In this document: positions 5,841-59,375 of the stretch, one piece after another
Layout of the letters: the number at the start of each line of letters is the position of its first letter
How positions within the stretch are numbered: the first letter of the stretch is position 1
DNA from: Chitinophagaceae bacterium
Lineage (GTDB): Bacteria; Bacteroidota; Bacteroidia; Chitinophagales; Chitinophagaceae
Length of the DNA: 64,000 nucleotides
Assembly: GCA_032110905.1 (NCBI GenBank)
Contig: JAULVS010000033.1
Location: 214 to 64,213 of the forward strand
Direction of reading: 5' to 3'
Made by a program: the position numbers and the translations under genes
The notes under the pieces: model-generated
Database searches by the model: none
What the model was told of the DNA's origin: nothing
What the model saw: the letters and a program-made list of their open reading frames with translations, nothing else

Positions 5841-6368
5841 ATGCAAACTTCTGAATCCCCATATTGGTACGCGGTATATACCCGTCCCAATATGGAAAAA
5901 AAAGTTACAGCAGAATTGCTCGAAAAGGGGATTGTGGCCTATTGTCCAGTTCAACGAGTACAGCGTCAATGGAGCGACCGGAAAAAAATCATAGAAGTAC
6001 CTGCTTTCAGGGGATACCTTTTTGTGCAGATTCATGATAAGATCAGGTGGGAGGTTCTTTCTACTAATGGTGCATTAAACTTTGTTTGCCACAATGGTAA
6101 ACCGGCCCGCATACCTCCTGCGGAGATAGATATTGTTCGCCGCTTTTTTCTGGATCTTGAAGAGACGCTGCTGGATGAAACAGATATATCAGTTAGCGAT
6201 ATTGCCCGTGTTTATAGTGGTGTAATGATGGGAATGGAAGGGGAAGTAGTCGATCTTAAACATCGTTATGTGGTGCTTCGCATTCCTGCATTAGGTTTGC
6301 AAATGCAAGTGAAAATACCAAAGGAAAATATACAGATTATCAAAAAGGGGAAGGCTGTTGGCGGTTAG
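5841..6368 (+). CDS. UpxY/NusG-paralog transcription antiterminator
   Basis: WYAVYTRPNMEKKV, QWSDRKKIIEVPAFRGYLFV NGN domain; KOW-like VYSGVMMGMEGEV. Confidence 0.88.
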   Translation: MQTSESPYWYAVYTRPNMEKKVTAELLEKGIVAYCPVQRVQRQWSDRKKIIEVPAFRGYLFVQIHDKIRWEVLSTNGALNFVCHNGKPARIPPAEIDIVRRFFLDLEETLLDETDISVSDIARVYSGVMMGMEGEVVDLKHRYVVLRIPALGLQMQVKIPKENIQIIKKGKAVGG

Positions 6369-6374
6369 CAGTTA

Positions 6375-6397
6375 GTCCTGAGCGAAGCGAAGGATCT
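6375..6397 (+). repeat. REP-like half element GTCCTGAGCGAAGCGAAGGATCT
   Basis: Resembles the reverse complement of the AGATTCTTCGCT...CAGAATGAC element at 52883-52937. Confidence 0.5.
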
Positions 6398-6420
6398 TCT
6401 TAACAGTTTGGAGTTAGTGT

Positions 6421-6453
6421 TAACCGATAACTTATAACCGATAACCGATCAAC
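6421..6453 (+). repeat. 7-bp periodic tract (TAACCGA-type)
   Basis: taaccga taactta taaccga taaccga tcaac immediately before glgA start. Confidence 0.8.
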
Positions 6454-6457
6454 ATCT

Positions 6458-7873
6458 ATGAACATCCTCCATGTTAGTGCTGAATGTTATCCGGTTGCCA
6501 AGGCTGGTGGTCTTGGAGATGTGGCTGGTGCACTTCCGAAATATCTCCAGCAGGCCGGACACAGAAGCAGTCTGGTAATGCCCATGTACCACACTAAATT
6601 TCTTCAATCTCATCAATGGAAAGTTGTACATAAAGGCAATGCCAATCTTGCCGACTATTTTTTCAGCTATACCGTCATTCGGGAAAGTGATCACGTACTA
6701 GGCTTTGACTTATATCTTGTTGATATTTTCGGATTGCTCGACAGGCCGGGTATTTATGGATATGAAGATGATCCGCAACGTTATACCGCTTTCCAGATTT
6801 CTGTTGTGGACTGGCTTTCTTCCTGGAATCACCATCCCGATATTGTTCATGTACATGATCATCATGCTGCCCTCATTCCTTTTTTGATGCAGCACACATA
6901 CCGATACAATCATCTTAGCCATATTCCAACTGTACTTACCATACACAATGCACAATACCAGGGATGGATGGGCTGGGAATCAGCCACGATGTTGCCTGCT
7001 TATGACTCATGGAAAACAGGTTTACTTGACTGGCAAGGGAAAATCAATCCGCTAGCATGCGGTATTCGTTGTGCTTCTAAAGTCACAACAGTGAGTGATA
7101 GTTATTTACAGGAGTTAAGCGTCAATAGCAATGGTCTTGAAAAACTTTTTGAATACGAAAAAGGTAAATGTTCAGGTATTTTGAATGGCATTGATGCGGA
7201 AGTGTGGAACCCGCAGACCGACCGTTATCTGAGGCATAAATACCATGCTGAAAACGCCGGGGAAGGAAAGCAAAAGTCTAAGCTTGAATTATGTGAAGTG
7301 TTTGGCCTTTCTCCGGAAAAACCTCTTTTTGTATTCATCGGTCGTTTGGTCGGTGATAAAGCAGCAGATTTACTTCCTTCAATTGTCGGAGATAGTTTTT
7401 ATCATATCGGTCGAGTTATGAATTTTCTTATTCTTGGCAGCGGCGATCCCGAAATTGAGGCGAGGCTCAATCAGTTGTCTGCTTTTTCTGAAAGAGATTA
7501 TGCCTGTTATATAGGATACAACGAAGCCCTGAGTCATCTGATGTATGCAGGTGCAGATTTTTTGTTGATGCCCAGCAGGGTAGAGCCTTGCGGATTGAAT
7601 CAGCTTTATGCGATGCGTTATGGAACAGTACCTTTTGTCAGAAATACAGGAGGACTCAGAGATACAGTCAGAGATATTGGTGAGCCGGATGGTTATGGTA
7701 TTGTATTTAATGAGGCAAGTACCGGAGATATCACAAATGCTGTTTGGCGGGCGATGCAGATTTATCCACAAAAAACCTATTTTTCTGAAATCAGGCAACG
7801 TATGATGGGACTTGATTACAGCTGGGAAACCTGTGTTGGAAAATATCTGGAAATTTATCAGTCACTCTACTAA
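6458..7873 (+). CDS. glgA: glycogen synthase (GT5)
   Basis: AECYPVAKAGGLGDV (KxGGL), HVHDHH, PSRVEPCGLNQL. Confidence 0.93.
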   Translation: MNILHVSAECYPVAKAGGLGDVAGALPKYLQQAGHRSSLVMPMYHTKFLQSHQWKVVHKGNANLADYFFSYTVIRESDHVLGFDLYLVDIFGLLDRPGIYGYEDDPQRYTAFQISVVDWLSSWNHHPDIVHVHDHHAALIPFLMQHTYRYNHLSHIPTVLTIHNAQYQGWMGWESATMLPAYDSWKTGLLDWQGKINPLACGIRCASKVTTVSDSYLQELSVNSNGLEKLFEYEKGKCSGILNGIDAEVWNPQTDRYLRHKYHAENAGEGKQKSKLELCEVFGLSPEKPLFVFIGRLVGDKAADLLPSIVGDSFYHIGRVMNFLILGSGDPEIEARLNQLSAFSERDYACYIGYNEALSHLMYAGADFLLMPSRVEPCGLNQLYAMRYGTVPFVRNTGGLRDTVRDIGEPDGYGIVFNEASTGDITNAVWRAMQIYPQKTYFSEIRQRMMGLDYSWETCVGKYLEIYQSLY

Positions 7874-7915
7874 AGTTTTGGCTTATTTTTAAGCAGTTTT
7901 AAAACTCTCTTTCTT

Positions 7916-9205
7916 ATGCCTCCTGCTACATATGCCAAAAAAACGCTTGCTATTATTCTTGGAGGAGGAGCAGGTACCCGTTTGTACCCCCTCACTGCGA
8001 GCAGAAGCAAGCCTGCCGTTCCCATTGCGGGTAAATATCGTTTGGTGGATATTCCCATTTCGAATTGTATGAATTCGGGTATCAACCGCATGTTTGTGCT
8101 GACTCAGTTTAATTCCGCTTCTTTAAACAAACACATAAAGAATACTTATCACTTCAGTATGTTCAGCAGTGCCTTTGTAGATATACTTGCTGCTGAACAA
8201 ACACCAGATAATACCGGTTGGTATCAAGGTACTGCAGATGCAGTGAGGCAATGTTTAAGGCATATGCTTCAACATGATGCGGAATATATTTTAATACTTT
8301 CGGGTGATCAGTTGTATCAAATGGATTTTCAAAAGATGCTGGAGGATCACATTGCGCGTGGAACTGATATCAGTATCGCAACAATTCCTGTAGCAGAAAG
8401 AGAAGCACCGGAGTTCGGTATTCTGAAAGCTGATGAGCATGGATTGATCACTTCATTCATTGAAAAACCTAAAAAAGAACAGTTGCATGAGTGGGTGAGT
8501 GATACGGGAGCAGATATGAATGCGCAGGGAAGGGTGTACCTCGCTTCTATGGGTATTTATATTTTTAACAGGAAACTATTGAATACCCTGCTGCTGGAAG
8601 AGCAGAAAGGTGCAACCGATTTCGGGAAAGAAATTATTCCTTCTTCTATTTCAAATTATAAAGTTGCAAGTTACCAGTATGATGGCTATTGGACAGATAT
8701 CGGAAATATCTATTCTTTTTTTGAAGCCAATCTTGCTTTGACTCAGGAACTTCCGGATTTTAATTTGTTTGATAATGATAATCCTGTTTATACACGCGCT
8801 AGGATGTTGCCGCCGGCAAAAATCAGCGGCACAACACTTGAAAAAACAATCATAGCGGAGGGTTCAATCATCCTAGCCAGCAGAGTAGAGAACAGTGTGA
8901 TTGGTATTCGTACGCGTATTGGTCATGGTACAACCATTGTAAGCTGCTACATCATGGGTAGTGATTACTATGAAACTTTGGAGGAAATGACGGAGGCTGT
9001 TGAAAAAGGTATTCCCAAAATCGGAATCGGTGAACGTTGCTACATCAAAAATACCATCATTGATAAGAACTGCCGTATAGGCAATGATGTCCGTATCAAT
9101 GGCGGTTCGCATCTCTCTAATGCTGATCATGCTTTGTATGCCGTGAAAGATGGCATTGTGGTTGTCAAGAAAGGCGCTATCTTGCCAGACGGATTTGTGA
9201 TTTAA
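7916..9205 (+). CDS. glgC: glucose-1-phosphate adenylyltransferase
   Basis: GGGAGTRLYPLT, KPAVPIAGKYRLVDIP, WYQGTADAV, DFGKEIIP. Confidence 0.96.
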   Translation: MPPATYAKKTLAIILGGGAGTRLYPLTASRSKPAVPIAGKYRLVDIPISNCMNSGINRMFVLTQFNSASLNKHIKNTYHFSMFSSAFVDILAAEQTPDNTGWYQGTADAVRQCLRHMLQHDAEYILILSGDQLYQMDFQKMLEDHIARGTDISIATIPVAEREAPEFGILKADEHGLITSFIEKPKKEQLHEWVSDTGADMNAQGRVYLASMGIYIFNRKLLNTLLLEEQKGATDFGKEIIPSSISNYKVASYQYDGYWTDIGNIYSFFEANLALTQELPDFNLFDNDNPVYTRARMLPPAKISGTTLEKTIIAEGSIILASRVENSVIGIRTRIGHGTTIVSCYIMGSDYYETLEEMTEAVEKGIPKIGIGERCYIKNTIIDKNCRIGNDVRINGGSHLSNADHALYAVKDGIVVVKKGAILPDGFVI

Positions 9206-9226
9206 ACCAACAAACAATCAATCGAT

Positions 9227-10747
9227 ATGTCTTCAACTATGAATGGAGCCAAGCCCCGGCTCTCTGTTGCTCAGATCATCAATATGAGCGTCGGTTTTTT
9301 GGGGATTCAGTTTGCATTCGGATTACAGAATGCCAATGTCAGCCGTATTTTTCAAACCCTTGGTGCAAAAATTGAAGAGATCCCCATTTTGTGGATTGCT
9401 GCTCCGTTGACCGGATTGATTGTTCAGCCGATCATCGGGCATATGAGTGACAAAACATGGATGGGTAAGCTTGGGCGGAGAAGACCGTTCTTCCTTGCAG
9501 GTGCCATTTTTGCATCTCTTGCATTGGTAGTTTTTCCGGGAGTTGATGCTTTGTGGATGGCAGCTGTGATGCTTTGGTTACTTGATGCTTCCATAAATAT
9601 TTCAATGGAGCCTTTTCGTGCATTTGTAGGTGATTTACTACCGGATGAACAAAGAACCACAGGTTTTGCTATGCAAAGCTTTTTTATAGGTGTAGGTGCA
9701 GTTATTTCTTCTTTGCTTCCATACCTTCTCACATCTTTTGGCATTTCTAATGAGGCTCCTGCCGGTGTAATCCCTGATTCTGTTCGTTATTCTTTTGTGA
9801 TAGGTGCAGCTGTTTATATGCTTACAATTATTTACACTGTTGTCACTACAAAGGAATATTCTCCAGAAGAATTAAAAGCGTTTGGTGAAAGCGGGCATGA
9901 AAACGGATTGGTTGAAATTAAAACTGCGGCTAAAAATTTTCTCAATAAAGGCCTCTTGTGGTTGACCATCGGACTCATTCTTTCTGCGTCGCTTTATTAC
10001 TATAACCTGAATGCAGCACACAGACTTGAGAAAGAATTATATGTTTTAACAGGAGGGATCACCGCATTCGGACTATTCCAGCTTGTTGCTTATTTTTTTC
10101 ACAGCGGAACAAGCTTCAGAGGTTTTGTTGAAGTGATTGATGACCTTAATTTTCTTCCTGCAACGATGAAGAAGCTGGCAGTAGTACAGTTTTTTTCCTG
10201 GTTTGCACTTTTTGCAATGTGGATTTATTCAACACCGGCGCTGGCACAACATCTTGCTGGCACAACAGATGCCAACTCTGCTGAATACAACCGTATCGGC
10301 AACTGGGTTGGTGTTTTGTTTGCTTATTACAATGGATTTTCTGCTCTGTTTGCTTTTCTTCTACCGGTATTAGCAAAATATTTCTCCCGACCCGGTGCTC
10401 ATATGATTTCTTTGATTGCTGGTGGTCTAGGTTTAATCTCATTTTATCTTTTCAACAACGAAAATATGCTTATCATCAGCATGGCTGGAATCGGACTCGC
10501 ATGGTGCAGTATTCTTGCTATGCCTTATTCGATTTTAACACAGGCTCTTCCTTCACATAAGATGGGAGTATACATGGGAATTTTTAATTTCTTTATTGTG
10601 ATCCCGCAAATACTGGCAGCAACATTGCTGGGTATGATGACAAAATATTTGTTTGCCGGCGAAGCAATTTATACAATCGTATTCGGTGGTTGCTCTATGA
10701 TTGTTGCAGCATTGCTGACCCTGCGTATTAAAGAAAAGTCTTTATAA
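9227..10747 (+). CDS. MFS sugar transporter (maltose/sucrose-H+ symporter-like)
   Basis: GIQFAFGLQNANVSRIFQTLGA, GRRRPFFLAG, multiple TM helices, MGVYMGIFNFFIVIPQI. Confidence 0.85.
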   Translation: MSSTMNGAKPRLSVAQIINMSVGFLGIQFAFGLQNANVSRIFQTLGAKIEEIPILWIAAPLTGLIVQPIIGHMSDKTWMGKLGRRRPFFLAGAIFASLALVVFPGVDALWMAAVMLWLLDASINISMEPFRAFVGDLLPDEQRTTGFAMQSFFIGVGAVISSLLPYLLTSFGISNEAPAGVIPDSVRYSFVIGAAVYMLTIIYTVVTTKEYSPEELKAFGESGHENGLVEIKTAAKNFLNKGLLWLTIGLILSASLYYYNLNAAHRLEKELYVLTGGITAFGLFQLVAYFFHSGTSFRGFVEVIDDLNFLPATMKKLAVVQFFSWFALFAMWIYSTPALAQHLAGTTDANSAEYNRIGNWVGVLFAYYNGFSALFAFLLPVLAKYFSRPGAHMISLIAGGLGLISFYLFNNENMLIISMAGIGLAWCSILAMPYSILTQALPSHKMGVYMGIFNFFIVIPQILAATLLGMMTKYLFAGEAIYTIVFGGCSMIVAALLTLRIKEKSL

Positions 10748-10779
10748 ACTTTAATCATTCATTGAAATATATATTTAGT

Positions 10780-12630
10780 ATGCGCCCATTTTTTAAGCTT
10801 TTATTTTTTTGGTTTCTATCATTAAATACTTTTTCACAGACAACACCTGTGGCTTACCCCTCCAACTGGTGGACAGGCATGAAGAATAGCCGTTTGCAGA
10901 TTCTTGTTCACGGAAAGGATATCGGCTCTTCACAAAATGTAAACCTCAGCTACCAGGGCGTTCAGCTTGAAAAAGTTAATCGTTTCTCCAATAAAAATTA
11001 TCTGGCAATTGATCTTGTTATCGGCTCAGAAGCTACACCCGGCAAAATGCAGATTCAGTTTAAATCGGGCAAGAAGACAACCAAGCTTGATTATGAATTG
11101 AAGGCTCGTCGCACAGGCAACGGAGTGGTATTTGCGAACGGAGCTACTTCAGCAGATTTGATGTACCTGATTATGCCGGATCGTTTCAGTAATGGAGATC
11201 CATCCAATGACCGCGTGCCGGGAATGAAGGATCAGACTCTTCGCAGAGATACAGTATTTAATCGTCATGGAGGTGATTTAAAAGGTGTTCAGAATAAACT
11301 TAATTATCTGTCTGATCTTGGTGTAACAGCCATCTGGCTGAATCCTGTTTGGGAAAATGACATGCCAGAAAGAACAGAACATGGTTATGCTTTTACTAAT
11401 CACTACAAAGTAGATCCTCGTTTGGGTGGCAACGAGGCTTATCGTTTACTTACAGAAGCCTGCCATACAAAAGGCATTAAAATGATTCAGGACGCTGTTT
11501 ACAACCATGTAGGTCTCGATCATTTTCTGTTTCGCGATATGCCGGACAGCAGCTGGTTTCATCGCTGGCCGTCCTTTACACAAACAAGTTTCAAAGACCA
11601 GGTTCTCTTTGATCCCTATGCGTCGGCTAATGACAAGAAGATTATGAGTGATGGTTGGTTTGTAACGGCTATGCCCGACTGGGATCAGAGCAATCCATTT
11701 GTGGCTAATTTTCTTATACAGCATGCCATCTGGAGTGTGGAAGAGTTTGGCATTGATGGTTTCCGGATTGATACCTACGCCTATAATGATCTTGAATTTA
11801 TGAACCGTTGTAACCAGGCTTTATATAACGAGTATCCTAATATTAGCATCTTTGGAGAAACCTGGGTTCATGGTGTGATTAACCAGAGTTACTTCTGTGA
11901 GAACAAACTGGATATCTCATATAAGAGCAACCTGCAAGCCACTACCGATTTCCAAACCTTGTTTTATGGCATTCAGCCTGCTTGTAATGAAAAATTTGGA
12001 TGGACAGAAGGCGTCAACAAATTATATACGACATTGGCCCAGGATGTTGTTTATAAAAACCCGATGCGTCAGGTTATATTTCTTGATAACCACGACATCA
12101 ATCGTTTTTATTCAGTTGTGAATGAAGATACTGCCAAATATAAAATGGCACTTGCCTGGATGTTGACTTGTCGCGGTATTCCGCAGATGTATTATGGGAA
12201 TGAAATATTAATGACCGGTTTCACTTCACCCAATGATGGGTATGTAAGATGGGGTTTTCCGGGAGGATGGGAAGGAGATAAGGCGAATAAATTCACGAAA
12301 GAAGGAAGAACGGAAAAAGAAAATGCTGTTTTTGATTACATCCGCAATTTGGCGCAATTCAGAAAATCATCTTCTGCACTCACGAAAGGAAAATTCATGC
12401 AATACCTTCCTGTTGATGGAGTATATGTGTATTTTAGATATGATGAGAAGCAAACGGTGATGTGTGTGATGAATACAAATGCGAATGCTTCAACAGTAAA
12501 TCCTGCGCGCTTTGATGAAAGAATAAATGGGCATAAGACAGCGAAGAATGTTACAAACGGAGAGGTGCTTTCTTTGAAAGAATCATTTTCTGTACCGGCT
12601 TACACGACATTTGTTTTTGAGTTGAAATAG
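10780..12630 (+). CDS. secreted GH13 alpha-amylase/cyclomaltodextrinase (SusA/neopullulanase-like)
   Basis: Signal peptide from ATG 10780; PSNWWTGM N-domain; DAVYNH, GFRIDT, FLDNHD catalytic regions. Confidence 0.9.
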   Translation: MRPFFKLLFFWFLSLNTFSQTTPVAYPSNWWTGMKNSRLQILVHGKDIGSSQNVNLSYQGVQLEKVNRFSNKNYLAIDLVIGSEATPGKMQIQFKSGKKTTKLDYELKARRTGNGVVFANGATSADLMYLIMPDRFSNGDPSNDRVPGMKDQTLRRDTVFNRHGGDLKGVQNKLNYLSDLGVTAIWLNPVWENDMPERTEHGYAFTNHYKVDPRLGGNEAYRLLTEACHTKGIKMIQDAVYNHVGLDHFLFRDMPDSSWFHRWPSFTQTSFKDQVLFDPYASANDKKIMSDGWFVTAMPDWDQSNPFVANFLIQHAIWSVEEFGIDGFRIDTYAYNDLEFMNRCNQALYNEYPNISIFGETWVHGVINQSYFCENKLDISYKSNLQATTDFQTLFYGIQPACNEKFGWTEGVNKLYTTLAQDVVYKNPMRQVIFLDNHDINRFYSVVNEDTAKYKMALAWMLTCRGIPQMYYGNEILMTGFTSPNDGYVRWGFPGGWEGDKANKFTKEGRTEKENAVFDYIRNLAQFRKSSSALTKGKFMQYLPVDGVYVYFRYDEKQTVMCVMNTNANASTVNPARFDERINGHKTAKNVTNGEVLSLKESFSVPAYTTFVFELK

Positions 12631-12676
12631 TTGATGGTTGTTAAATGTTGGTTGTTGGTTTGATAGTTGGAAGTTT
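12630..12676 (+). repeat. 7-bp periodic GTT tract after stop codon
   Basis: GTT at 12630, 12637, 12651, 12658, 12666, 12673. Confidence 0.6.
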
Positions 12677-12697
12677 TAAACTTGTAAGTTTATCATT

Positions 12698-14677
12698 ATG
12701 TCTGCTTCAAAAAAAAAGTTTTCTTCCGGTCATAATGACTCACGATACGAAGATCATCACTTCATTGATACTTCAAAACCGGTTTGGAATTATTCACGTT
12801 TTGAAGGAGATGATATCACCAATTTTCAAAATGGGACCAATTACCGTTGTTATGAATTGTTTGGTTCTCACCCGATGGAGGTGAATGGGGCGAAGGGATA
12901 TTATTTTGCAGTATGGGCTCCCAATGCAAGCTATGTATCCGTTATTGGGAATTTCAATCACTGGAATACGAATGCACATCCTTTGTTTGTTCGTCTCGAT
13001 TCTTCAGGTATCTGGGAAGGTTTTATTCCTGGTGTTCACAAAGGAGAATCTTACAAATATCACATTCATGGCTTTGAAGGGATAAAACTTGATAAAGGAG
13101 ATCCCTATGCCTGGTTTTGGGAAAAGCGTCCAAAAACGGCCTCTATTACCTGGGAACAATCTTATCATTGGCACGATGCTCACTGGATGAAGAAAAGATC
13201 CCATCATAACGCATTGAATGCACCCTGGAGTGTGTATGAGGTTCATCTGGCTAGCTGGATGCGTCCCGACCCTAACAATGAGGAGGTTTATCATAATTAC
13301 GATTTTTTCAGCGATCGTTTGGTTTCTTATGTAAAAGAAATGGGTTTCACCCATGTGGAACTGATGCCTGTTATGGAGCATCCGTTTGATGGCAGCTGGG
13401 GTTATCAGGGAGCAGGGTATTATGCGCCTACTTCACGTTACGGAGATCCTCAGCAATTCAAAGCACTGATCGATGCTTTTCATAAAGAAGGCATTGGGGT
13501 GATTCTCGATTGGGTGCCTTCACATTTCCCTTATGATGCACACGGGCTGTTTATGTTTGATGGTACACATACCTATGAATATGCCGATATGCGCAAAGGG
13601 TATCATCCCGACTGGAACAGTTATGTGTTTAACTACAAAAGGGGAGAGGTTCGTTCTTTTTTGATCAGCAATGCACGGTTTTGGTTTGATCTATATCACA
13701 TTGACGGCATTCGTGTGGATGCTGTTTCTTCAATGTTGAAACTGAATTATTCTCGTCAACATGGCCAATGGGAGCCCAATGAATTTGGGGGAGACGGGAA
13801 CCTGGAAGCAATAGAGTTTATCAAGGATTTAAACGCAACTGTTTACCGCGATTTCCCTGATGTACAAACGATTGCGGAAGAAGCAACCGACTGGCCCGGC
13901 GTAAGCAGGCCTTTATACAAGGATGGCTTAGGTTTCGGTATGAAGTGGATGATGGGTTGGATGCATGATACACTAAAGTATTTTAAACAGGAAGCTGTTA
14001 ATAGAAAATTTCAACAGGATCAGTTTACGTTCAGTATGATGTATTTCTATGATGAAAATTTTATGCTTCCGCTAAGTCACGATGAAGTTGTTCATGGCAA
14101 AAGCCCGATGATTTATAAAATGCCCGGCGATGAATGGCAAAAATTTGCCAACCTGCGTCTGTTGTACACATATATGTTTACACATCCTGGAGGCAAGCTA
14201 TTGTTTATGGGAAATGAATTCGGATCTACCACTGAATGGAATTATAAAACTGAATTACCCTGGCAATTATTACAATACGCACCACATGCCGGAATGAAAA
14301 ACTGCGTGAAAGATCTATGTCACTTATTACGTAGTGAGCCCGCATTGTATCAGAAGCAGTTTGAAGTTGAAGGTTTTGAGTGGACTGATTTAAATCATCG
14401 TTCAGAATCAGTGATAGCTTACAGAAGAAAAGGGGAGAGGGAAGAAGATGATGTGATTGTTGTTCTCAATCTTACAGCTGTTGTTAGGACAGACTGGAAG
14501 TTAAATGTGCATAGGAAAAAACAATGGAAACAGATTTTTAGCAGCGATGATGAGGCTTATTGGGGAACTGGCAATCATTCAAATACAGTGACGAATATCA
14601 TTGAGATAAATTCGGATAATTGTATGTACGAGCTAACTTTGCATCTTCCTCCGTTAGCCGCTGTGGTATTAAGGTAA
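12698..14677 (+). CDS. glgB: 1,4-alpha-glucan branching enzyme
   Basis: FAVWAPNA, YEVHLASW, WGYQ, LDWVPSHF, GIRVDAVSSML, LSHDEVVHGK. Confidence 0.96.
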   Translation: MSASKKKFSSGHNDSRYEDHHFIDTSKPVWNYSRFEGDDITNFQNGTNYRCYELFGSHPMEVNGAKGYYFAVWAPNASYVSVIGNFNHWNTNAHPLFVRLDSSGIWEGFIPGVHKGESYKYHIHGFEGIKLDKGDPYAWFWEKRPKTASITWEQSYHWHDAHWMKKRSHHNALNAPWSVYEVHLASWMRPDPNNEEVYHNYDFFSDRLVSYVKEMGFTHVELMPVMEHPFDGSWGYQGAGYYAPTSRYGDPQQFKALIDAFHKEGIGVILDWVPSHFPYDAHGLFMFDGTHTYEYADMRKGYHPDWNSYVFNYKRGEVRSFLISNARFWFDLYHIDGIRVDAVSSMLKLNYSRQHGQWEPNEFGGDGNLEAIEFIKDLNATVYRDFPDVQTIAEEATDWPGVSRPLYKDGLGFGMKWMMGWMHDTLKYFKQEAVNRKFQQDQFTFSMMYFYDENFMLPLSHDEVVHGKSPMIYKMPGDEWQKFANLRLLYTYMFTHPGGKLLFMGNEFGSTTEWNYKTELPWQLLQYAPHAGMKNCVKDLCHLLRSEPALYQKQFEVEGFEWTDLNHRSESVIAYRRKGEREEDDVIVVLNLTAVVRTDWKLNVHRKKQWKQIFSSDDEAYWGTGNHSNTVTNIIEINSDNCMYELTLHLPPLAAVVLR

Positions 14678-23603: not shown

Positions 23604-24353
23604 ATGTCGAATACGTATTTTCAATTTAAACAGTTTATCGTACATCAGGAGCGGGCGGCAATGAAAGTGAGTACGGATAGTTGTCTGTTTGGAGCCTGGG
23701 TAGCAGATAAAATCAGTAATAGTTATAATGAGAATGATCAAATTGAAAAAGGTCAAGCTATTTCAAGAATATTAGATATTGGAACAGGAACAGGATTATT
23801 ATTATTGATGCTGGCACAAAAAGTAGATGCTGAACTTGCGGGTATTGAACTTGATGCAGGTGCGTTTGCAGATGCTGATAATAACATAAGTGCATCAGCG
23901 TGGAAGGAACGTATCCATTTAATAGAAGGTGATGTATTAAAGCATTCATTCAGCGGTCGGTATGATTTAATTATTTCAAATCCTCCATTTTATGAGAATA
24001 GTTTAAAATCTGATATTGCCGAAAAAAATCTGGCAAAGCATGATGAAACGCTTACGTTAAGATCACTGGTAAAAGTTGTTGATGTGCTATTAGATGAAGC
24101 AGGCATCTTTGCTGTGATGATACCTGCATTCAGAAGTGATGAGTTATTAACTTATACATCTGAAAGAAACCTTTATCTGATTGAAAGTATGGATGTATTA
24201 AATATTGAAGGAGGGAAGCCCATCAGGACTTGTTTTTTATTCGGGAGGAAGAAACTTGAGCTGGTTCAAACATCATTGATCATTCGGGATTCTACTCAAC
24301 AATATACAAGTGAATTCAAGAAACTTTTGCAGGATTATTATTTACATCTGTGA
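23604..24353 (+). CDS. tRNA1(Val) (adenine37-N6)-methyltransferase family
   Basis: FQFKQF, AMKVSTDSCLFGAW, LDIGTGTG, ISNPPFY. Confidence 0.88.
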   Translation: MSNTYFQFKQFIVHQERAAMKVSTDSCLFGAWVADKISNSYNENDQIEKGQAISRILDIGTGTGLLLLMLAQKVDAELAGIELDAGAFADADNNISASAWKERIHLIEGDVLKHSFSGRYDLIISNPPFYENSLKSDIAEKNLAKHDETLTLRSLVKVVDVLLDEAGIFAVMIPAFRSDELLTYTSERNLYLIESMDVLNIEGGKPIRTCFLFGRKKLELVQTSLIIRDSTQQYTSEFKKLLQDYYLHL

Positions 24354-44403: not shown

Positions 44404-44895
44404 TCAAAGCTTTGTGATTTTGTCAATTAGGCTTGTTGAAGATTTGCCGGGTATCAGTGGAATGATTTCCACCTTTCCACCTGCTGCCAACACTTCATTT
44501 GCACCTACAATGGTTTCAATGGAATAATCACCGCCTTTAACCAGCACATCCGGCATTATCTTTTTTATAAGTTGAAGTGGTGTGTCTTCTTCAAAAACCA
44601 TAACGGCATCAACCATCTCAAGAGAGGAGAGGATTTCTATACGGTCTTCCATACAATGTACGGGCCTCGATTCTCCTTTTAATCTTTTAACTGAAGAATC
44701 ACTGTTGACGCCCACAATTAAAATATCTCCGAATGAAGCTGCCTGCTTCAGTGTATGAATATGCCCGGCATGCAAGAGATCGAAAACGCCATTGGTAAAA
44801 ACAACTTTTTTTGAAGTAAGTTTCCACCTTTCTTTCCATTGAAGAATTGACTGTTCATTCAAAATTTTTCTCTCCAGGTACTGAATGCCTTTCAT
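44404..44895 (-). CDS. D-glycero-beta-D-manno-heptose 1-phosphate adenylyltransferase (stand-alone HldC/RfaE2-like)
   Basis: VVFTNGVFDLLHAGH, VGVNSDSSVKRLKG, LVKGGDY, SSTSLI. Confidence 0.85.
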   Translation of the reverse strand: MKGIQYLERKILNEQSILQWKERWKLTSKKVVFTNGVFDLLHAGHIHTLKQAASFGDILIVGVNSDSSVKRLKGESRPVHCMEDRIEILSSLEMVDAVMVFEEDTPLQLIKKIMPDVLVKGGDYSIETIVGANEVLAAGGKVEIIPLIPGKSSTSLIDKITKL

Positions 44896-44902
44896 GGTAA
44901 AA

Positions 44903-44973
44903 GTTGTTGGTTATTGGTTATTTGTTGTTGGTTAATGGCGGTTCGTTTGTGGGCTACCGATAACCGATAACTC
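44903..44973. repeat. inverted pair of 7-bp tracts
   Basis: gttgttg gttattg gttattt gttgttg gttaatg ... ctaccga taaccga taactcc. Confidence 0.8.
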
Positions 44974-45990
44974 CTAACCGCGAACTATTTTATTTCTGTT
45001 TACAATTGGCAATAACACAAAGCAGATTAATCCGGTAACAAGCACTATTCCCATTTGTGCTATCCAGAGTATCCATCCAAAAGCATATCCCAGTGCTTCT
45101 CCGATTCCATAAAGCAGTAATGTCTTTTGAACAGCGTACTGATAGGAGCCGAGACCTCCTTGCGTTGGCACAAGCATACCAAGACTTCCGAAACAAAGAA
45201 CTGATAATGCAACTGAGATGCCGAGGCCTTCTGTTTCTTTCAATGCGTAAAAACCAATTTGAATACTTAATAAATAAAGTATCCAGATGAATACTGATTG
45301 TAAAATAAAAAGATTTTTACGGGGCACATTGCGGATACTTAATAGTCCGTCGTAAACTCCTTTGAGTATTGATTTAACTTTTAGAAACCAGTTTTTTTGT
45401 TTGTGCTTTTTAATTATGAGGTATAAAACAATTAATGCAATTAGGAGTGATACTACAAAAATGATTAATCCATTCGAATTTATCTTTTCTCCGGATGAAC
45501 CGGTAATCATATGAAATAAGGACATTGCATAACTGCCCACAACATCAACCTGCAGTAAAACAGTAATGAAGCTGACTATCACCAAACAGATCATATCGAC
45601 CGCTCTTTCAGCAACAATGGTGCCTACGAGTTTTTCAGGTGGGATTTTCTCATAGCGGGAGAGAAGGGTACACTTTAGGATTTCACCAAGACGGGGAACA
45701 GCCAGGTTGCTCATATAGCCAATCATAACCATACTGAACAGGTTGAAGTTTGTAGCATGGTATCCCATTGAATTGATCAAAAGTTTCCATCGCATAGCCC
45801 GCAGATAATGACTAAGCAAAAGGGTAAAGAAAACCGGCAGAACCACCCAATAACGTGCGTTAGAGATGGCATTACGAATCTCTTTCCATCCTTCTTCACT
45901 GATGTTTTTACCCATCCACCAAACGAGACCTATTCCCAATCCGGTAAAAAACAATACTTGTAATATGGTGCGCAAACGTTTTCGGAGCAT
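44974..45990 (-). CDS. lysylphosphatidylglycerol-synthase TM / flippase-like protein (UPF0104)
   Basis: RAMRWKLL, GYMSNLAVPRLGE, GTIVAER, VPTQGGLGSYQ; multiple TMs. Confidence 0.85.
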   Translation of the reverse strand: MLRKRLRTILQVLFFTGLGIGLVWWMGKNISEEGWKEIRNAISNARYWVVLPVFFTLLLSHYLRAMRWKLLINSMGYHATNFNLFSMVMIGYMSNLAVPRLGEILKCTLLSRYEKIPPEKLVGTIVAERAVDMICLVIVSFITVLLQVDVVGSYAMSLFHMITGSSGEKINSNGLIIFVVSLLIALIVLYLIIKKHKQKNWFLKVKSILKGVYDGLLSIRNVPRKNLFILQSVFIWILYLLSIQIGFYALKETEGLGISVALSVLCFGSLGMLVPTQGGLGSYQYAVQKTLLLYGIGEALGYAFGWILWIAQMGIVLVTGLICFVLLPIVNRNKIVRG

Positions 45991-51906: not shown

Positions 51907-51910
51907 AAGA

Positions 51911-51974
51911 GAGACCGTAAGTCCATGAGACAGACGAACAACGAACAACGATCAACGATCAACGAACAACTAAC
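51911..51974 (+). repeat. 8-bp tract followed by 7-bp AACGAWC tract
   Basis: gagaccgt aagtccat gagac; aacgaac aacgatc aacgatc aacgaac aactaac. Confidence 0.8.
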
Positions 51975-51975
51975 G

Positions 51976-52833: not shown

Positions 52834-52882
52834 AATTGTTATGGGGTACAGGTTTAACTAATATCCCATATTATCAGTTTCG

Positions 52883-52937
52883 AGATTCTTCGCTTATGCT
52901 CCACGTTTACGCTTCACTATGGGACGAGCAGAATGAC
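52883..52937. repeat. REP-like element AGATTCTTCGCT...CAGAATGAC
   Basis: Ends resemble the reverse complement of 6375-6397; about 34 nt internal spacer. Confidence 0.5.
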
Positions 52938-52965
52938 GCACTTGTCCTTTACCAACCACTATAAC

Positions 52966-52998
52966 TACTGCCAACCGCCAACTGTTAACTGATAACCG
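52966..52998 (-). repeat. 7-bp GTT tract after pyk stop
   Basis: Minus strand: gttaacg gttatca gttaaca gttggcg gttggca. Confidence 0.8.
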
Positions 52999-54492
52999 TT
53001 AACTGACAACTCCAATTTTAATCAGATTGGTAGGCAAGTGTAATTGAACCGGTGTGCTACCTGTGTTTACAATAACATCGCCGGGTTTTACAAATCCTCT
53101 TTCTTTCAGAATATTAATTTGATCGGTGAAAATTTCATCAACACTTTCTTCTTCTCCGTAGTAAAAAGCACGTACACCCCAGCTCAAACTTAATTGGTTG
53201 ACTAAAGTTTTTTCTTTGGTGAAAATATAAAGAGGAGAGCGTGGACGGAAGGAACTCAGCATAAAGCCAGTGTAACCGCTTTGTGTCATGCCAATTAAAG
53301 CATGCGCATTCACATCCTTTGAAATTTCGCAGGCATTATAGCAAATTGCATCACTGAGGAAAGATGGAGAATGAGGTTGAGGTTTCAGATCTTCCTCACG
53401 ATCGTAGCGGTAATAGCTGCTTGTTTCAACTTCTTTGATGATTTTACACATCGTTTCTACAACCAGAACCGGATGACTGCCTGTAGCAGTTTCCCCACTA
53501 AGCATTACCGCATCTGCGCCTTCAAGTACAGCATTTGCAACATCAGAGCTTTCACTTCTGTTTGGTTTAACCCGATCAATCATACTTTCCATCATCTGTG
53601 TGGCAACGATAACAGGCTTCGCTCTATGAATACATTTACGGATAAGCTCTTTTTGAATGAGGGGCACTTGCTCAACCGGCATTTCTACACCAAGATCACC
53701 GCGGGCAACCATGATGCCATCACTTTCGAGAATAATATCCCGGATATTAGTAAGTGCTTCGGGCTTTTCAATTTTTGCGATGATTTTGAGCTTGCTTTTT
53801 CTTTCGTCTAGTTTGTTACGAAGAATGATGATGTCTTTTACATTTCTAACAAAAGAAAGAGCTACCCAGTCAAGTTGTTGGTCAATAATAAAATCAAGAT
53901 CAGCTAAATCCTTCTCCGTAAGGGCCGGTAAAGAGATTTTCGTATCAGGCAGGTTAATTCCTTTTTTAGATGAAAGTTTTCCGCCAAGCGTAACTTCTAC
54001 CTGTACATCATTGTTTCTGGTGATGCCAATTACTCTCACTTCAAGTTTGCCATCGTCTATCAGGATGATATTTCCGGGTTTCACATCCTTATGTAAATCG
54101 GGATAGGAAACATAAATGCGTTCGTTGTTACCAATGAGTTTTTCATTTGTAAAAGTTAGGATATCGCCTTCCTTCACGTCAATCCCTCCGTTTTCCATTT
54201 CGCCTACGCGAAGTTTCGGTCCTTGTAGATCACCCAGAATTGCGATGTTGTAAGGCTGTGTTTTATTAATATTTCGGATGTGCTCGATGATTTGTGCTTT
54301 GTCTTCATGAGATCCATGGGAAAAGTTGAGACGAAATACATTGACGCCTGCTTTAACAAGCCCAAGTAATTTGTCGTAAGTGTCACAGGCTGGTCCAACC
54401 GTTGCAACTATTTTGGTACGGTGAGAAGAATGGCGGATGCCTTCTTCTTTATTCATTTCTTTGTGCAGGTACTTACCGACGTTTTTTGACAT
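52999..54492 (-). CDS. pyk: pyruvate kinase
   Basis: RTKIVATVGPA, FRLNFSHG, GDLQGPKLR, IIAKIE, MVARGDLGVE, ATQMMESM; likely ATG 54492. Confidence 0.97.
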   Translation of the reverse strand: MSKNVGKYLHKEMNKEEGIRHSSHRTKIVATVGPACDTYDKLLGLVKAGVNVFRLNFSHGSHEDKAQIIEHIRNINKTQPYNIAILGDLQGPKLRVGEMENGGIDVKEGDILTFTNEKLIGNNERIYVSYPDLHKDVKPGNIILIDDGKLEVRVIGITRNNDVQVEVTLGGKLSSKKGINLPDTKISLPALTEKDLADLDFIIDQQLDWVALSFVRNVKDIIILRNKLDERKSKLKIIAKIEKPEALTNIRDIILESDGIMVARGDLGVEMPVEQVPLIQKELIRKCIHRAKPVIVATQMMESMIDRVKPNRSESSDVANAVLEGADAVMLSGETATGSHPVLVVETMCKIIKEVETSSYYRYDREEDLKPQPHSPSFLSDAICYNACEISKDVNAHALIGMTQSGYTGFMLSSFRPRSPLYIFTKEKTLVNQLSLSWGVRAFYYGEEESVDEIFTDQINILKERGFVKPGDVIVNTGSTPVQLHLPTNLIKIGVVS

Positions 54493-55799: not shown

Positions 55800-56696
55800 A
55801 TGAAGGTTTTTGTTACCGGAGCAAATGGATTGGTTGGCAGGCATCTTATTCGTATGCTGGTAGAGGAGGGGAAGTTTGATGTGCACGCATCAGGCAAAGG
55901 CCCGTGTAGGATAGTAACCGGAAAAAAATCTTCTTTCGTATATCATAACCTGGATCTGGCTTCACATAAACATGTGCAGGCTTTGCTGGGAAAAATTGCT
56001 CCTTCTATTATTATTCATTTAGGTGCAATGTCACAACCCAATGATTGTGAATTAGATAAAAAGTCTTGTTGGAAAATAAATGTCGGAGGTACGAGAGCGA
56101 TTGTAAAGGCAGCCCTAGAGGTTAAAGCATTTGTTATTTATGTGAGTACTGATTTTGTTTTTGATGGTGAAGAGGGGCCTTATGATGAAGCAGCGGAGCC
56201 ATCACCTTTGAGTACATACGGGGAGAGCAAATACCTTGCAGAGCAAATTATTGAGTTGAGCGGGTTGCATTATGCAATCGTACGCACAGTACTTGTATAT
56301 GGTCCGCCGGTACAAGGTGGTAGATCTAATTTTGTATTATGGGTGAAAGAGCAGCTAGAAGAAGGCAATAAAATCAAAGTAGTGAACGACCAGGTACGCA
56401 CGCCTACTTATGTGGAAGACCTTGCAAAAGGAATTTTACTGGTATTGATGAAACATGCGCAAGGAATTTACCATATTTCAGGCAAGGATACGATTACCCC
56501 TTATGATTTTGCATGTCAAATTGCGGATATAATTGGGAAAGATAAATCGCTGATTACACCCGTAGATGCAGACATTTTTACCGAACCGGCCAAACGTCCG
56601 CTTAAAACAGGATTCATCATTGAAAAAGCTGTTCGCCAGCTTGGATATGAGCCTCATTCTCTGAATGAAGGACTTAGGAAGGTGTTGTTTGGTTAA
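55800..56696 (+). CDS. extended SDR, dTDP-4-dehydrorhamnose reductase (RmlD)-like
   Basis: VFVTGANGLVG, YVSTDFVFDG, YGESK, DQVRTPTY, AKRP. Confidence 0.85.
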   Translation: MKVFVTGANGLVGRHLIRMLVEEGKFDVHASGKGPCRIVTGKKSSFVYHNLDLASHKHVQALLGKIAPSIIIHLGAMSQPNDCELDKKSCWKINVGGTRAIVKAALEVKAFVIYVSTDFVFDGEEGPYDEAAEPSPLSTYGESKYLAEQIIELSGLHYAIVRTVLVYGPPVQGGRSNFVLWVKEQLEEGNKIKVVNDQVRTPTYVEDLAKGILLVLMKHAQGIYHISGKDTITPYDFACQIADIIGKDKSLITPVDADIFTEPAKRPLKTGFIIEKAVRQLGYEPHSLNEGLRKVLFG

Positions 56697-56819
56697 CAAT
56701 ATTTGCACAGGTCATTTTTTTTTATTTTCTTTACGTTCATCTAATTAGTTGATATTCATGAATCTTTTTAAGCCGAGATTCGTTGTTTTCTATTAATTCA
56801 TCATCCTAAAAAACCGATT

Positions 56820-59306
56820 ATGCCAAAAGCATTTTTCTTTCTTACATTTTTTTCCCTTTCTTCTTTATTAATTAATGCTCAGACCCGAACTTGGGATGGA
56901 GGAGGAGATGGCGTAAACTGGGGTGATGCAAATAATTGGAGTAGCAACATTTTACCAACTGCAGGCGCAAGTATTCCTTATGGGTATAACGTAACTGTAA
57001 ATGGTGATTTCAATTGTTCTTCTGTTACATTTATTGGTACTGGATCTATCGGAACAACTTCAACATTGCAGATTAATTCAGGAAATACCCTAACTGTTTC
57101 GGGCGCGATTACAATGAATCACCTTGCATCTGGTACTGCAACAGCAAATATTCAAGGATTAGGAACAATTAGTGTTGGCTCCATTACAATAGGTCCCAAT
57201 TTGGGAAATCCCTTTTTATCAGCAAGTGGGATTACAAAAATGAATACAAATATTGCGAATTTTATTTGTAATGGAGATTTAGTAATCAGATCATATCATG
57301 ATAGTCCCGATAATGCGAATGCTGCTTTTTCCTTACAGAGTGGAACCTTTACAATTGGTGGTATTATTACTCCTTTCGTCTCAACAAGTACTGGACAAAC
57401 TGTATATTTTTTAATGAATGAAGGTACTCAGAGTGGAACATTAGTTCTGAATAATGTAGACCCCTGGACAGGAGATATAGATTTTACTACTTCTTCCGGC
57501 TGGGGAACAAACAGTACGGCAAGTGCTGTAACATATAATTTGAATTTAAATGGGTCCAACGCAACTGTAGTTTACAATAGAAACGGAAATCAGACAATAA
57601 ATAAAGCTCGTTCAGGGGCATCTGGAACAGTTGCTGTTACATATCGCAATCTCACTCTTACAGGTTCAGGAAATAAATCACTCCCTTCTACTTCCTCTGC
57701 AACCATCACAGGCACACTTTCTTTTCAAGGTACGGCTGTTATGACAACAACGAATCCTACTTATGCTTCAGGAAGCACCCTCGAATACAAAGGTTCAACT
57801 GCGCAAACCACCACAGGATTTGAGTTTCTCACCGGTGCAATTGCTCCTTCAAATATCATCATTGATAATCCGCTTGGTGTTACTCTTCATGCAGCCAGAA
57901 CTCTTCGTAGTTCAGGCGTCAATTCTATTACGTTAAGAAATGGCGCTTTCAATAATATCTCATTTAATGTAACAATGGCTTCCGGTTCAACCATCATCAG
58001 AGGTGGTGGGAGTTTTCAATCAACGCCTTTGTTTCCGGCTTCTGTGAACCTGACTTATGAGCAAACAAGTTCGAATATTACTTCTTTATTAGAAGTGCCT
58101 ACTACTACAGGTACATTATCAAACCTTACAATCAACAATACCAATGGTGTGACTTTTAACAGAGATGCAACGATTAATGGCACATTAACTTTAACAAATG
58201 GTGTTCTTACTCTAAATCCAGGATATGTTATGCACATAGCTTCAGGAAATCAGATTGCAGGAACAGGGTTTGGATTATTAAAACATATTATTACAGAAAA
58301 AGATGCTATTAGTGGAGCCATCGCATATATCAGAACAGGATCATTTACAGGATCCCGAACATTTCCATTGGGCGAGGGTAACTATTATATGCCTGCAACA
58401 TTAAGTTCGACAGGATCCAATGATTTCAATGTGGCGGTTTTCAGCGGAGCAGCATCAAATGGTGAACCTAACGGATCTGCTTTCAATAATCTTAGTCCTA
58501 TCGTAAATGCCAACTGGATCATTAACCGAAATGCAGGTTCAACTGCAACCGATATTACTTTTTCTTGGAGTGAAAGCTTAGAAGGGGGTGCGTTCAGTGC
58601 TGCCGCTGACAATGAAATAGGTATATCCAGGTATGATGGTTCTAACTGGGATGCAATCACCGGTATAAACGGAGATAATTCAGCAAATACCGTTACACGC
58701 ACCGGTGTTAATACATTTTCTCCGTTTATCGTAGCTGTCATAAATACACCGCTTCCTCTGAAATTCGGCCCTGTTACCGCATCCCGTATCGGTATACAAC
58801 AGGTGAAAGTCGACTGGAAAGTGTATGAAGAGTCGGATGTTCTTTCTTATGAAGTTCAGCGTTCAGAAAATGGGGCATCGTTTAAATCCATCAACTCTGT
58901 TTTTACATCAGGGGTTACTCTGGCTGAAAAACAATATTCATCTATAGATCTAAATGCAGGGAACGGAACATTATTCTACCGTATTCGCGCTGTTGAATCA
59001 AACGGAAAATTTGTTTACAGCCCTATTATAAAAGTTTCCGCAAGCGACAAAAAAGGATGGTCTGTTTATCCAAACCCTGTACAAAAAGGGAAAAATATAT
59101 TTCTGGAAATGTCACTCCCTACAGGAGACTATACACTGGAGCTGGTTGATATGAAGGGTAGTAAAATTCAAGCTTATGTTTTTGCAGGTATGTCCGGACA
59201 AATAACCAGAAGTATCCAATTGCCGAATGAAACAAATCCAGGCACTTACTTCCTTCGCTTGTCTGGTGATGGATTTAATGAGACCAGGATGATTGTGGTT
59301 CAGTAA
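56820..59306 (+). CDS. large T/S/G/N-rich surface protein with T9SS type-A CTD
   Basis: Signal peptide; RTWDGGGDGVNWGDANNWS; beta-helix-like repeats; PLPL...YEVQRSENG...YRIR Ig-like domain; VYPNPV CTD. Confidence 0.85.
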   Translation: MPKAFFFLTFFSLSSLLINAQTRTWDGGGDGVNWGDANNWSSNILPTAGASIPYGYNVTVNGDFNCSSVTFIGTGSIGTTSTLQINSGNTLTVSGAITMNHLASGTATANIQGLGTISVGSITIGPNLGNPFLSASGITKMNTNIANFICNGDLVIRSYHDSPDNANAAFSLQSGTFTIGGIITPFVSTSTGQTVYFLMNEGTQSGTLVLNNVDPWTGDIDFTTSSGWGTNSTASAVTYNLNLNGSNATVVYNRNGNQTINKARSGASGTVAVTYRNLTLTGSGNKSLPSTSSATITGTLSFQGTAVMTTTNPTYASGSTLEYKGSTAQTTTGFEFLTGAIAPSNIIIDNPLGVTLHAARTLRSSGVNSITLRNGAFNNISFNVTMASGSTIIRGGGSFQSTPLFPASVNLTYEQTSSNITSLLEVPTTTGTLSNLTINNTNGVTFNRDATINGTLTLTNGVLTLNPGYVMHIASGNQIAGTGFGLLKHIITEKDAISGAIAYIRTGSFTGSRTFPLGEGNYYMPATLSSTGSNDFNVAVFSGAASNGEPNGSAFNNLSPIVNANWIINRNAGSTATDITFSWSESLEGGAFSAAADNEIGISRYDGSNWDAITGINGDNSANTVTRTGVNTFSPFIVAVINTPLPLKFGPVTASRIGIQQVKVDWKVYEESDVLSYEVQRSENGASFKSINSVFTSGVTLAEKQYSSIDLNAGNGTLFYRIRAVESNGKFVYSPIIKVSASDKKGWSVYPNPVQKGKNIFLEMSLPTGDYTLELVDMKGSKIQAYVFAGMSGQITRSIQLPNETNPGTYFLRLSGDGFNETRMIVVQ

Positions 59307-59310
59307 TATA

Positions 59311-59375
59311 GTTTTCAGTTAGCAGTTTTCGGTTTTAATAATTAGTAACAAAAAATCTAACTGCTAACTGAAAAC
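59311..59375. terminator. perfect 17-bp inverted repeat built from heptamers between convergent genes (possible bidirectional hairpin)
   Basis: GTTTTCAGTTAGCAGTT (59311-27) / AACTGCTAACTGAAAAC (59359-75). Confidence 0.6.

Follow-up and report, generated by a model that had tools for sequence, protein, structure and literature searches.

Gene-end-anchored arrays of a degenerate GTT-core heptamer in a Lacibacter-like Chitinophagaceae genome

Results

Heptamer arrays in the window and in the genome

In this study, we analysed a 64,000-nucleotide (nt) stretch of DNA from a Chitinophagaceae bacterium, referred to below as the window, and the short tandem tracts of 7-nt units, with GTT on one strand and AAC on the other, that lie in the spacers between its genes. 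The window is contig C33 of an assembly of 2.54 Mb in 229 contigs with a GC content of 40% and a completeness score of 99.4%; this source genome is called G000, its contigs carry C-numbers, and other G-numbers stand for comparison genomes. The host is a small Lacibacter-like member of the Chitinophagaceae (Bacteroidota), as indicated by a type IX secretion system (T9SS) sorting domain at the end of the open reading frame (ORF) 56820-59306 and by the pyruvate kinase encoded in the window, the closest relatives of which are found in Lacibacter and other Chitinophagaceae metagenome-assembled genomes (MAGs). All nine sites listed in an initial annotation of this DNA carry period-7 tracts with a GTT or AAC core. 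The pattern GTTNNNNGTTNNNNGTT has 35 matches in the window, whereas 0.68 are expected and 100 dinucleotide shuffles gave 4 at most, and the tracts were also scored as period 7 by the Tandem Repeats Finder (TRF) program, with 3-6 copies and 70-94% matches; period-14 sub-patterns in the TRF output point to block duplication. The tracts, and an insert between two of them, are as follows.

6355-6378, plus strand: GTT-type array GTTGGCG GTTAGCA GTTAGTC, which runs over the stop of the NusG-paralog gene 5841-6368
6421-6453, plus strand: AAC-type array TAACCGA TAACTTA TAACCGA TAACCGA TCAAC, the end of which lies 4 nt ahead of the glgA start at 6458
12630-12691, plus strand: solitary GTT-type array running from the stop of the amylase-like gene and filling the spacer to the glgB start at 12698, so that it also stands directly before a start
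24359-24381, plus strand: GTT-type arm AGTTACG GGGTACG AGTTACG, 5 nt past the stop of gene 23604-24353; one unit has GTA
24382-24587, no strand assigned: 205-nt insert between two arms, from comparison with G006 and G002
24588-24617, plus strand: AAC-type arm CTCATAAC CCGTAAC ACGTAAC TCATAAC, by the minus-strand gene 24619-25815, on the sense strand of which it reads GTT just past the stop
27050-27089, plus strand: GTT run, which in the sense of the minus-strand gene 26571-26918 is an AAC array upstream of that gene; its partner tract at 27141-27190 is degenerate and weak, with two units in phase
34604-34627, plus strand: 4-unit GTT-type arm, 2 nt past a dcd-like gene's stop
34629-34665, plus strand: 5-unit AAC-type arm that abuts the stop of the minus-strand protease gene 34670-36358
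44903-44938, plus strand: GTT, equal to an AAC-sense leader before the start at 44895 of the minus-strand gene 44404-44895
44954-44985, plus strand: AAC, equal to a GTT-sense array over and past the stop of the minus-strand gene 44974-45990
51934-51974, plus strand: solitary AAC-type array, ACGAACA six times, ending at the ATG at 51976
52966-53010, plus strand: AAC, equal to a GTT-sense array over the last codons and stop of the minus-strand pyruvate kinase gene 52999-54492
59311-59334, plus strand: GTT-type arm past the stop of the gene 56820-59306 for the T9SS-sorted protein; left half of a 17-bp inverted repeat
59359-59382, plus strand: AAC-type arm abutting the stop of the minus-strand gene 59378-60304

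The 17-bp inverted repeat described at the last site is exact (59311-59327 and 59359-59375). The glycogen gene run 5841-14677, which is co-directional and consists of the NusG-paralog gene (PF02357) followed by glgA, the amylase-like gene and glgB, has array-bearing spacers at 6369-6457 and 12631-12697.

The window tracts are members of a single family of degenerate heptamer tandem arrays that extends through the genome. When runs of at least three exact GTT or AAC at period 7 were counted across the genome, 162 GTT and 159 AAC runs were obtained (321 in total), about tenfold above other periods, with only 12-22 runs per strand at periods 5, 6, 8, 9 and 10, and no other trinucleotide at period 7 gave a comparable number. 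A period-7 search of the genome that was blind to the core returned 208 arrays, 183 of which have GTT/AAC in their consensus unit. Genes were called with a purpose-written dicodon caller, which gave 2337 genes with start positions that are approximate; although 90% of the genome is coding by these calls, 263 of the 321 arrays (82%) are intergenic. Arrays occupy 175 spacers, and 76 of them consist of 3 units, 62 of 4, 65 of 5, 26 of 6 and 16 of at least 7. A scan with Rfam gave a tRNA as the sole match in the window and none on the arrays or inserts. An assembly artefact could be ruled out, both by the number of arrays at contig ends (5 observed, 4.6 expected) and by the recurrence of orthologous arrays in independent MAGs.

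The unit has the consensus GTTRTYR, or YRAYAAC on the opposite strand. Its commonest form, TGATAAC, is a cyclic permutation of TAACTGA; exact tandem copies of TAACTGA are confined to 10 doublets and no triplets in the genome, and this scarcity indicates that the arrays are mixtures of YRAYAAC units. The statement in the initial annotation that only the GTT/AAC core and the 7-bp period are conserved is about right, since within arrays the G, T and T of the core are conserved at.90,.89 and.87 and the remaining four positions at.69,.67,.84 and.61. Tandem GGGAATC or GGGGATT does not occur in the genome, and the unit GTTRTYR has no G-tract. Start- and stop-proximal arrays show a modest difference in their units, with C at position 6 at 0.37 and 0.58, respectively (p 0.001). 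On the sense strand, start-proximal arrays are composed of 48% A, 28% C and 8.6% G, and 56 of the 71 contain stop codons in at least two frames. The array consensus CRGTTR resembles CNGTTR, the core site of Myb proteins.

Orientation and anchoring

It had been noted at several window sites that GTT follows stop codons and AAC precedes starts on the sense strand of the gene concerned, and a genome-wide test against flanking genes shows that the orientation is indeed not random: near stops GTT-sense arrays prevail by 128 to 36, and near starts AAC-sense arrays prevail by 71 to 10 (p < 1e-11 in both cases). Two thirds of the arrays (164 of 245) are stop-proximal and one third are start-proximal; GTT arrays begin a median of 4 nt after stops, and the median distance of AAC-sense arrays before starts is 19 nt. 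An artefact of ORF calling at starts was ruled out, as just 7 genic arrays (3 GTT, 4 AAC) lie within 60 nt of a 5' end. Viewed on the plus strand, the left part of a spacer carries GTT (96:18) and the right part AAC (103:28; Fisher p 6e-24), and this bias is alike in ++, +-, -+ and -- spacers. GTT is followed by AAC in 52 of the 53 spacers that contain both types, which bears out the earlier description of the tracts as imperfect inverted repeats, and the pattern GTTx3-N(4-34)-AACx3 has 90 matches in G000 against none for the reverse order. Solitary arrays obey the same orientation rule (101:21). Those in spacers of 200-400 nt lie at a median of 8 nt from the gene at the 5' side of the GTT strand, with 31 of 35 conforming and none within 15 nt of the gene at the other side. 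By spacer class, the share of spacers with arrays is 17% for convergent, 7% for co-directional and 5% for divergent ones, and in divergent spacers AAC-sense arrays before starts are again in excess (18 conforming, 6 not).

Geometrically there is no difference between 'GTT after stops' and 'AAC before starts'; together they amount to a single mirror-symmetric rule, in which the polarity is set by the gene ends or the spacer centre and not by the direction of transcription. The GTT strand has its 5' end at the nearest gene end, no matter which way that gene is transcribed, and hence two arms in one spacer face each other as (GTTnnnn)n...(nnnnAAC)n. The earlier interpretation of the polarity as linked to transcription is not supported, as the rule holds equally in all four gene configurations, and therefore no RNA-strand-specific signal is needed.

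Predicted folding of the arrays

Spacers with paired arrays are predicted to fold with a mean z score of -2.65, compared with -0.72 for array-free spacers, and the arms pair in their best register at about 75% of positions by Watson-Crick pairing. The predicted folds differ from site to site. The region 59305-59380, with arms at 59311 and 59359, reaches -25.9 kcal/mol (z -7.3), the pair at 34600-34670 folds no better than shuffles (z -0.47), and the neighbouring arms at 44896-44986 are unpaired. The leader 51907-51975, which contains the solitary array at 51934, and the array at 12630-12691 are predicted to be unstructured (z -0.04 and z -0.33, respectively). Complementarity specific to the arms of one spacer is essentially absent beyond the shared consensus (0.57 for same-spacer and 0.53 for random arm pairs, p 0.04), arm lengths within a spacer are not correlated (rho 0.21, p 0.15), and at non-Watson-Crick positions of the sense strand G-U and A-C do not differ significantly (20 and 29). 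Pairing of the arms is thus due to the shared consensus and not to arm-by-arm co-evolution, and a dedicated RNA signal is not supported. Nor is the suggestion of a selected RNA hairpin supported, and several paired spacers fold like shuffled sequences. By a simple definition, stems followed by a T-tract are rarer at array-bearing 3' ends (5 of 123) than at other 3' ends (136 of 1295, p 0.018), so that the GC-rich stem and U-tract of an intrinsic terminator are found at only these 5 array-bearing ends.

Comparison with related genomes

Of the genomes compared, the closest were G006, at about 86-90% nucleotide identity, and G002, at about 75-88%. The site 24354-24618 is represented in G002 by a spacer of about 10 nt without arrays and in G006 by an empty hairpin made up of AGTTACG four times, a 12-nt loop and an AAC arm of four units, and G000 has arms as in G006 that are split by the 205-nt insert; no duplication is evident at this filled/empty site. 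The spacer 34602-34669 holds 4+5 units in G000 against 6 and about 17 in G006. At 44896-44973, G000 and G006 are the same save for point changes, and G002 has a 12-nt spacer without arrays. At 51907-51975, the solitary (AACGAAC)6 of G000 is matched in G002 by a full hairpin of a different unit family. These states at orthologous spacers indicate that arrays appear and vanish as whole arms or hairpins, and judging from the sequences compared they also change by unit-wise slippage, undergo replacement and take up DNA between the arms. The comparison of orthologous spacers in close relatives thus shows presence or absence of whole hairpins, changes in unit number and replacement, but with three taxa gain is not polarised against loss. 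In 80 more distant Chitinophagaceae loci, synteny was lost for four of the five gene pairs; these loci contain few arrays (30 in 1.29 Mb).

The 205-nt insert at 24382-24587 contains an 8-nt periodic tract of CCGGTCT type and a motif of about 40 nt, CTCTGCGTTAACCTCTTTTTCTCTTTTCTCTGCGCC, which is repeated at about 21 loci across the genome. The two ends of the insert carry AAC-phased runs (24385-24408 and 24558-24574), and by eye an AACTTCT motif can be seen at either end of the insert region. A second dispersed element, of about 60-70 nt and containing TTCTTCGCTTATGCTCCACGTTTACGCTTCACTATGGGACGAGCAGAATGACG, lies at 52870-52940; it has 13 further BLAST matches on 5 other G000 contigs, some of them in tandem clusters (C54, C202), and G002, G015 and G023 have copies too. 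In the G006 spacer orthologous to 59307-59377, a related copy is flanked by short arms. As constant occupants of the space between arms, the motif of about 40 nt and the element of about 60 nt show a weak association.

Period-7 GTT arrays are present in 38 of 41 related genomes and are densest in G000, G002 and G006. The nnnn positions are lineage-specific, with GTTAATN in G029 and GTTCAAA/GTTCTGA in G025 and G031. In a sample of 301 Bacteroidota genomes, the facing order GTT...AAC was found in 88 genomes and the reverse order in 23, or in roughly 750 against 100 matches by a hand sum, and most of the reverse-order cases come from different unit families, for example AACGCTN and GAAC-type units. 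Matches to the reversed-pattern control, TTG at period 7, are very numerous in some relatives (G020, G021, G034; up to 299), a sign that these genomes harbour additional heptamer families built on another core. In G178, a relative of the same family, the arms at C9:62876-62941 consist of GTTTAGG, which is the plant-type telomere repeat TTTAGGG in another phase.

Genes for PF05635 four-helix-bundle proteins

The initial annotation had hinted at repeat-flanked genes for four-helix-bundle proteins elsewhere, and a search identified three PF05635 genes in the genome, one of which, C56:236-677, indeed lies between a GTT arm and an AAC arm. GTT stands before the start and AAC after the stop of this gene, the opposite of the arrangement at ordinary genes. 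The second gene, C98:7194-7830, has TTAGTCC-type 7-mers at one flank and GGTCT-type 8-mers at the opposite one, and these arms fit only loosely; from these tracts it follows that the periodicity of arms is not limited to GTT units or to period 7. Among the PF05635 genes sampled from 41 Chitinophagales genomes, 22 of 29 have inverted period-7 flanks at a threshold of at least 17/21, as compared with 0 of 29 displaced controls. Furthermore, 86 of the 88 genomes with the GTT...AAC pattern in the 301-genome sample contain PF05635, and the pattern was found in 2 of 65 genomes lacking it; this co-occurrence was collated by hand (odds ratio 18, p 8e-9) and the statistic ignores phylogeny. All four PF05635-less genomes among the 41 relatives have 0-2 arrays in total (p 1.5e-4). 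At the window sites, no PF05635 gene lies between arms.

Other genes near the arrays

The tRNA gene at 25913-25996 (plus strand) adjoins a minus-strand pair of Gp49-like and HTH_3 genes (26571-26918 and 26245-26568), which looks like a toxin-antitoxin pair and is followed by a RadC-like gene at 27227-27916.

Discussion

In the initial annotation, the arrays were placed in the frame of the short tandemly repeated repetitive (STRR) sequences of heterocystous cyanobacteria, which Mazel et al. in 1990 are said to have described as dispersed tandem heptamers in intergenic DNA. The known STRR units are CCCCAGT, TTGGTCA and CAACAGT. Our arrays resemble STRR repeats in being dispersed intergenic tandem heptamers but differ in host phylum, and the cyanobacterial frame is not supported here: the T9SS sorting domain and the relatives of the host identify it as a Lacibacter-like member of the Chitinophagaceae, and these three STRR units form no doublet anywhere in its genome. 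A likeness also exists to repetitive extragenic palindromic (REP) sequences, bacterial interspersed mosaic elements (BIMEs) and MITEs (miniature inverted-repeat transposable elements), which are likewise short, dispersed, intergenic, palindrome-forming, enriched after 3' ends and variable between strains. However, no full-length consensus exists here, as only a 3-nt core and its phase are conserved, and we saw no terminal duplication and identified no REP-associated tyrosine transposase (RAYT) or other transposase partner. A conserved element consensus with terminal inverted repeats and target-site duplication, as in a MITE, was not found either, the arms being different between copies and even within one spacer. 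Finally, a conserved triplet every 7 nt in short arrays is reminiscent of the RNA sites of HutP and TRAP. HutP binds UAG triplets that are 4 nt apart. The HutP and TRAP arrays are single regulatory sites in the leaders of specific Firmicutes operons, unlike the arrays studied here, and no protein of this type was found in the present analysis, in which no search was aimed at one.

The kind of repeat and its geometry are already known from three published systems. TAACTGA direct repeats have been reported from Beggiatoaceae, cyanobacteria and five Bacteroidetes; most of them lie forward of starts, Flexibacter litoralis has a reverse set that follows a stop, and binding by proteins of the S1, Csp or CsrA type has been proposed for them (MacGregor, 2015; PMC4679880). 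They share with our arrays the heptamer period, the intergenic location, the AAC-forward orientation just upstream of starts, indels in 7-nt steps between strains and some Bacteroidetes hosts (PMC4679880). In agreement with this description, our arrays are mostly intergenic (82%) and AAC-forward close upstream of starts (71:10), yet 164 of 245 are stop-proximal and facing pairs are the rule. Their units are moreover degenerate, whereas related heptamers are rare as repeats in BOGUAY, and Chitinophagaceae are not among the hosts given (PMC4679880). A closer match in geometry is provided by the GGGAATC/GGGGAYT heptamers of Xanthomonas and Nostoc, where the nearest ORF lies at the 5' side of the repeats whatever its orientation; coding-strand repeats occur 0-50 bp from the stop and frequently extend over it, non-coding-strand ones precede starts, about 4 units are preferred and convergent inverted pairs are numerous (Rehm et al., 2015; PMC4692102). 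The gene-end geometry found here is identical to theirs. However, their units contain G-tracts and form quadruplexes while ours have no G-tracts, the phyla differ, and their sites are more conserved than controls (PMC4692102), in contrast to the lability of our arrays between close relatives. The third system is the intervening sequence (IVS) in the 23S rRNA of Coxiella burnetii, in which a PF05635-family ORF (S23p) lies inside a 28-bp stem of terminal inverted repeats with tandem heptamers, the number of which varies by strain; RNase III cleaves this stem in vitro (Warrier et al., 2016; PMC4990558). Here as there, a PF05635-family gene may lie in the loop between inverted heptamer-bearing arms, and two inverted arrays serve as arms in the 53 spacers with both types, 52 of them in the same order; our arms differ in that they stand between protein-coding genes and not in rRNA, are nearly all empty and are often poorly complementary. 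This study adds a new host family, a degenerate GTT core, the strictness with which the orientation rule is kept, and a comparative series.

We suggest, with a confidence that we would put at about even, that the tracts are paired or solo arms of labile palindromic heptamer-array elements, of the kind that bracket PF05635 genes. Such elements would have a layout like that of ORF-bearing 23S rRNA IVSs, would enter very short spacers, would grow and shrink by whole units, may be replaced over short evolutionary distances and may accept other DNA between their arms. The arrays would arrive by insertion, the conserved GTT core would be a site of protein recognition and, where the arms pair in RNA, the stem may be processed in an RNase III-like manner or may mark a 3' end. 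The earlier suggestion that the tracts are the footprint of a mobile or repeat-adding process is in part upheld by this: it is the better fit to the comparative data, but no mechanism was seen. Several observations weigh against such elements. The genome has just 3 PF05635 genes for 175 array-bearing spacers, and no enzyme, target duplication or movement was seen. Arms of the same spacer are no more alike than random pairs (0.57 vs 0.53) and their lengths are uncorrelated, so that a unitary palindromic element is not demonstrated, and about 70% of the 'solitary' arrays are without a visible partner despite there being room for one. In addition, gain and loss are not polarised by three taxa with distant synteny lost, and phylogeny and genome size are confounders of the co-occurrence with PF05635.

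A different connection between the arrays and PF05635 proteins, which we regard as decidedly unlikely, is that the two form one system, in which an oligomeric PF05635 protein would read the GTT triplet every 7 nt in arrays that are typically 3-6 units long. The geometry in which the GTT strand points away from the gene would then correspond to the G-strand polarity at the two ends of a linear replicon. The arrays might mark polar gene-boundary elements, or they might be scars, formed where both 3' ends at a break or insertion site were extended by heptamers and then joined; scars would account for facing arms that are independent in sequence and length and for foreign DNA between them.

Alternatively, the arrays could be two separate RNA-level cis-elements, a (nnnnAAC)n 5' leader and a (GUUnnnn)n element of the 3' untranslated region, of which the leader, being unstructured and G-poor, would aid Shine-Dalgarno-independent translation or bind S1/Csp-type proteins, as MacGregor suggested for TAACTGA. 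This is unlikely in our view, even though the 71:10 preference for AAC-sense arrays before starts extends to divergent spacers (18 vs 6), start-proximal arrays are low in G (8.6%) with stop codons in at least two frames in 56 of 71, the leader at 51907-51975 is unstructured (z -0.04), the units at starts and stops differ modestly (C at position 6 0.37 vs 0.58, p 0.001), and the published TAACTGA repeats lie forward of starts in Beggiatoaceae and Flexibacter litoralis (PMC4679880). A single geometric rule covers both gene ends, however, PF05635 genes are arranged oppositely with GTT before the start and AAC after the stop, the GTT array at 12630 stands directly before a start, and the sense strand has no G-U bias. 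Furthermore, arrays are missing or replaced by other families at orthologous spacers of G002, and they are therefore dispensable for those genes.

Ordinary microsatellite slippage, with selection merely purging harmful orientations, has in its favour the same dispensability in G002, differences in unit number between close relatives (4+5 vs 6+17) and block duplication seen as period-14 sub-patterns. We nevertheless agree with the initial annotation that plain slippage does not explain the arrays, and consider it very unlikely, because only the GTT/AAC core, and only at period 7, is enriched, variation within arrays affects the positions outside the core while the core itself is conserved, orientation and anchoring are non-random (p < 1e-12), array size is bounded at 3-6 units, and the same core recurs across Chitinophagales with lineage-specific nnnn. 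Equally improbable to us is that hairpin-type, often bidirectional, transcription terminators or 3'-end stabilisers have been built from the repeats. The preference for convergent spacers (17%, against 7% of co-directional and 5% of divergent ones), the median distance of 4 nt past stops, the folding of paired spacers (mean z -2.65 vs -0.72) and the scarcity of canonical terminators at array-bearing 3' ends (5/123 vs 136/1295, p 0.018) would all be consistent with such a role. On the other hand, the U-tract is lacking, solitary arrays are unstructured, the pair at 34600-34670 folds like shuffles (z -0.47) and the arms at 44896-44986 are unpaired, arrays lie inside the co-directional glycogen gene run (6369-6457 and 12631-12697), and one third of all arrays are start-proximal.

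Earlier reports of dispersed heptamer arrays have been piecemeal, from cyanobacteria, Beggiatoaceae, Xanthomonas and a few Bacteroidetes, and no function has been agreed upon. The present data add a phylum-scale co-occurrence of arrays with the enigmatic PF05635 proteins, and they show that an apparent 'transcriptional polarity' can be purely geometric. With about 300 arrays in 2.5 Mb, a handedness of 90:0, anchoring at gene ends, and filled, empty and absent states in relatives, this genome offers an unusually clean case, which makes two questions directly testable: what reads a GTT triplet at 7-nt intervals, and why the orientation of the triplet is coupled to gene ends.

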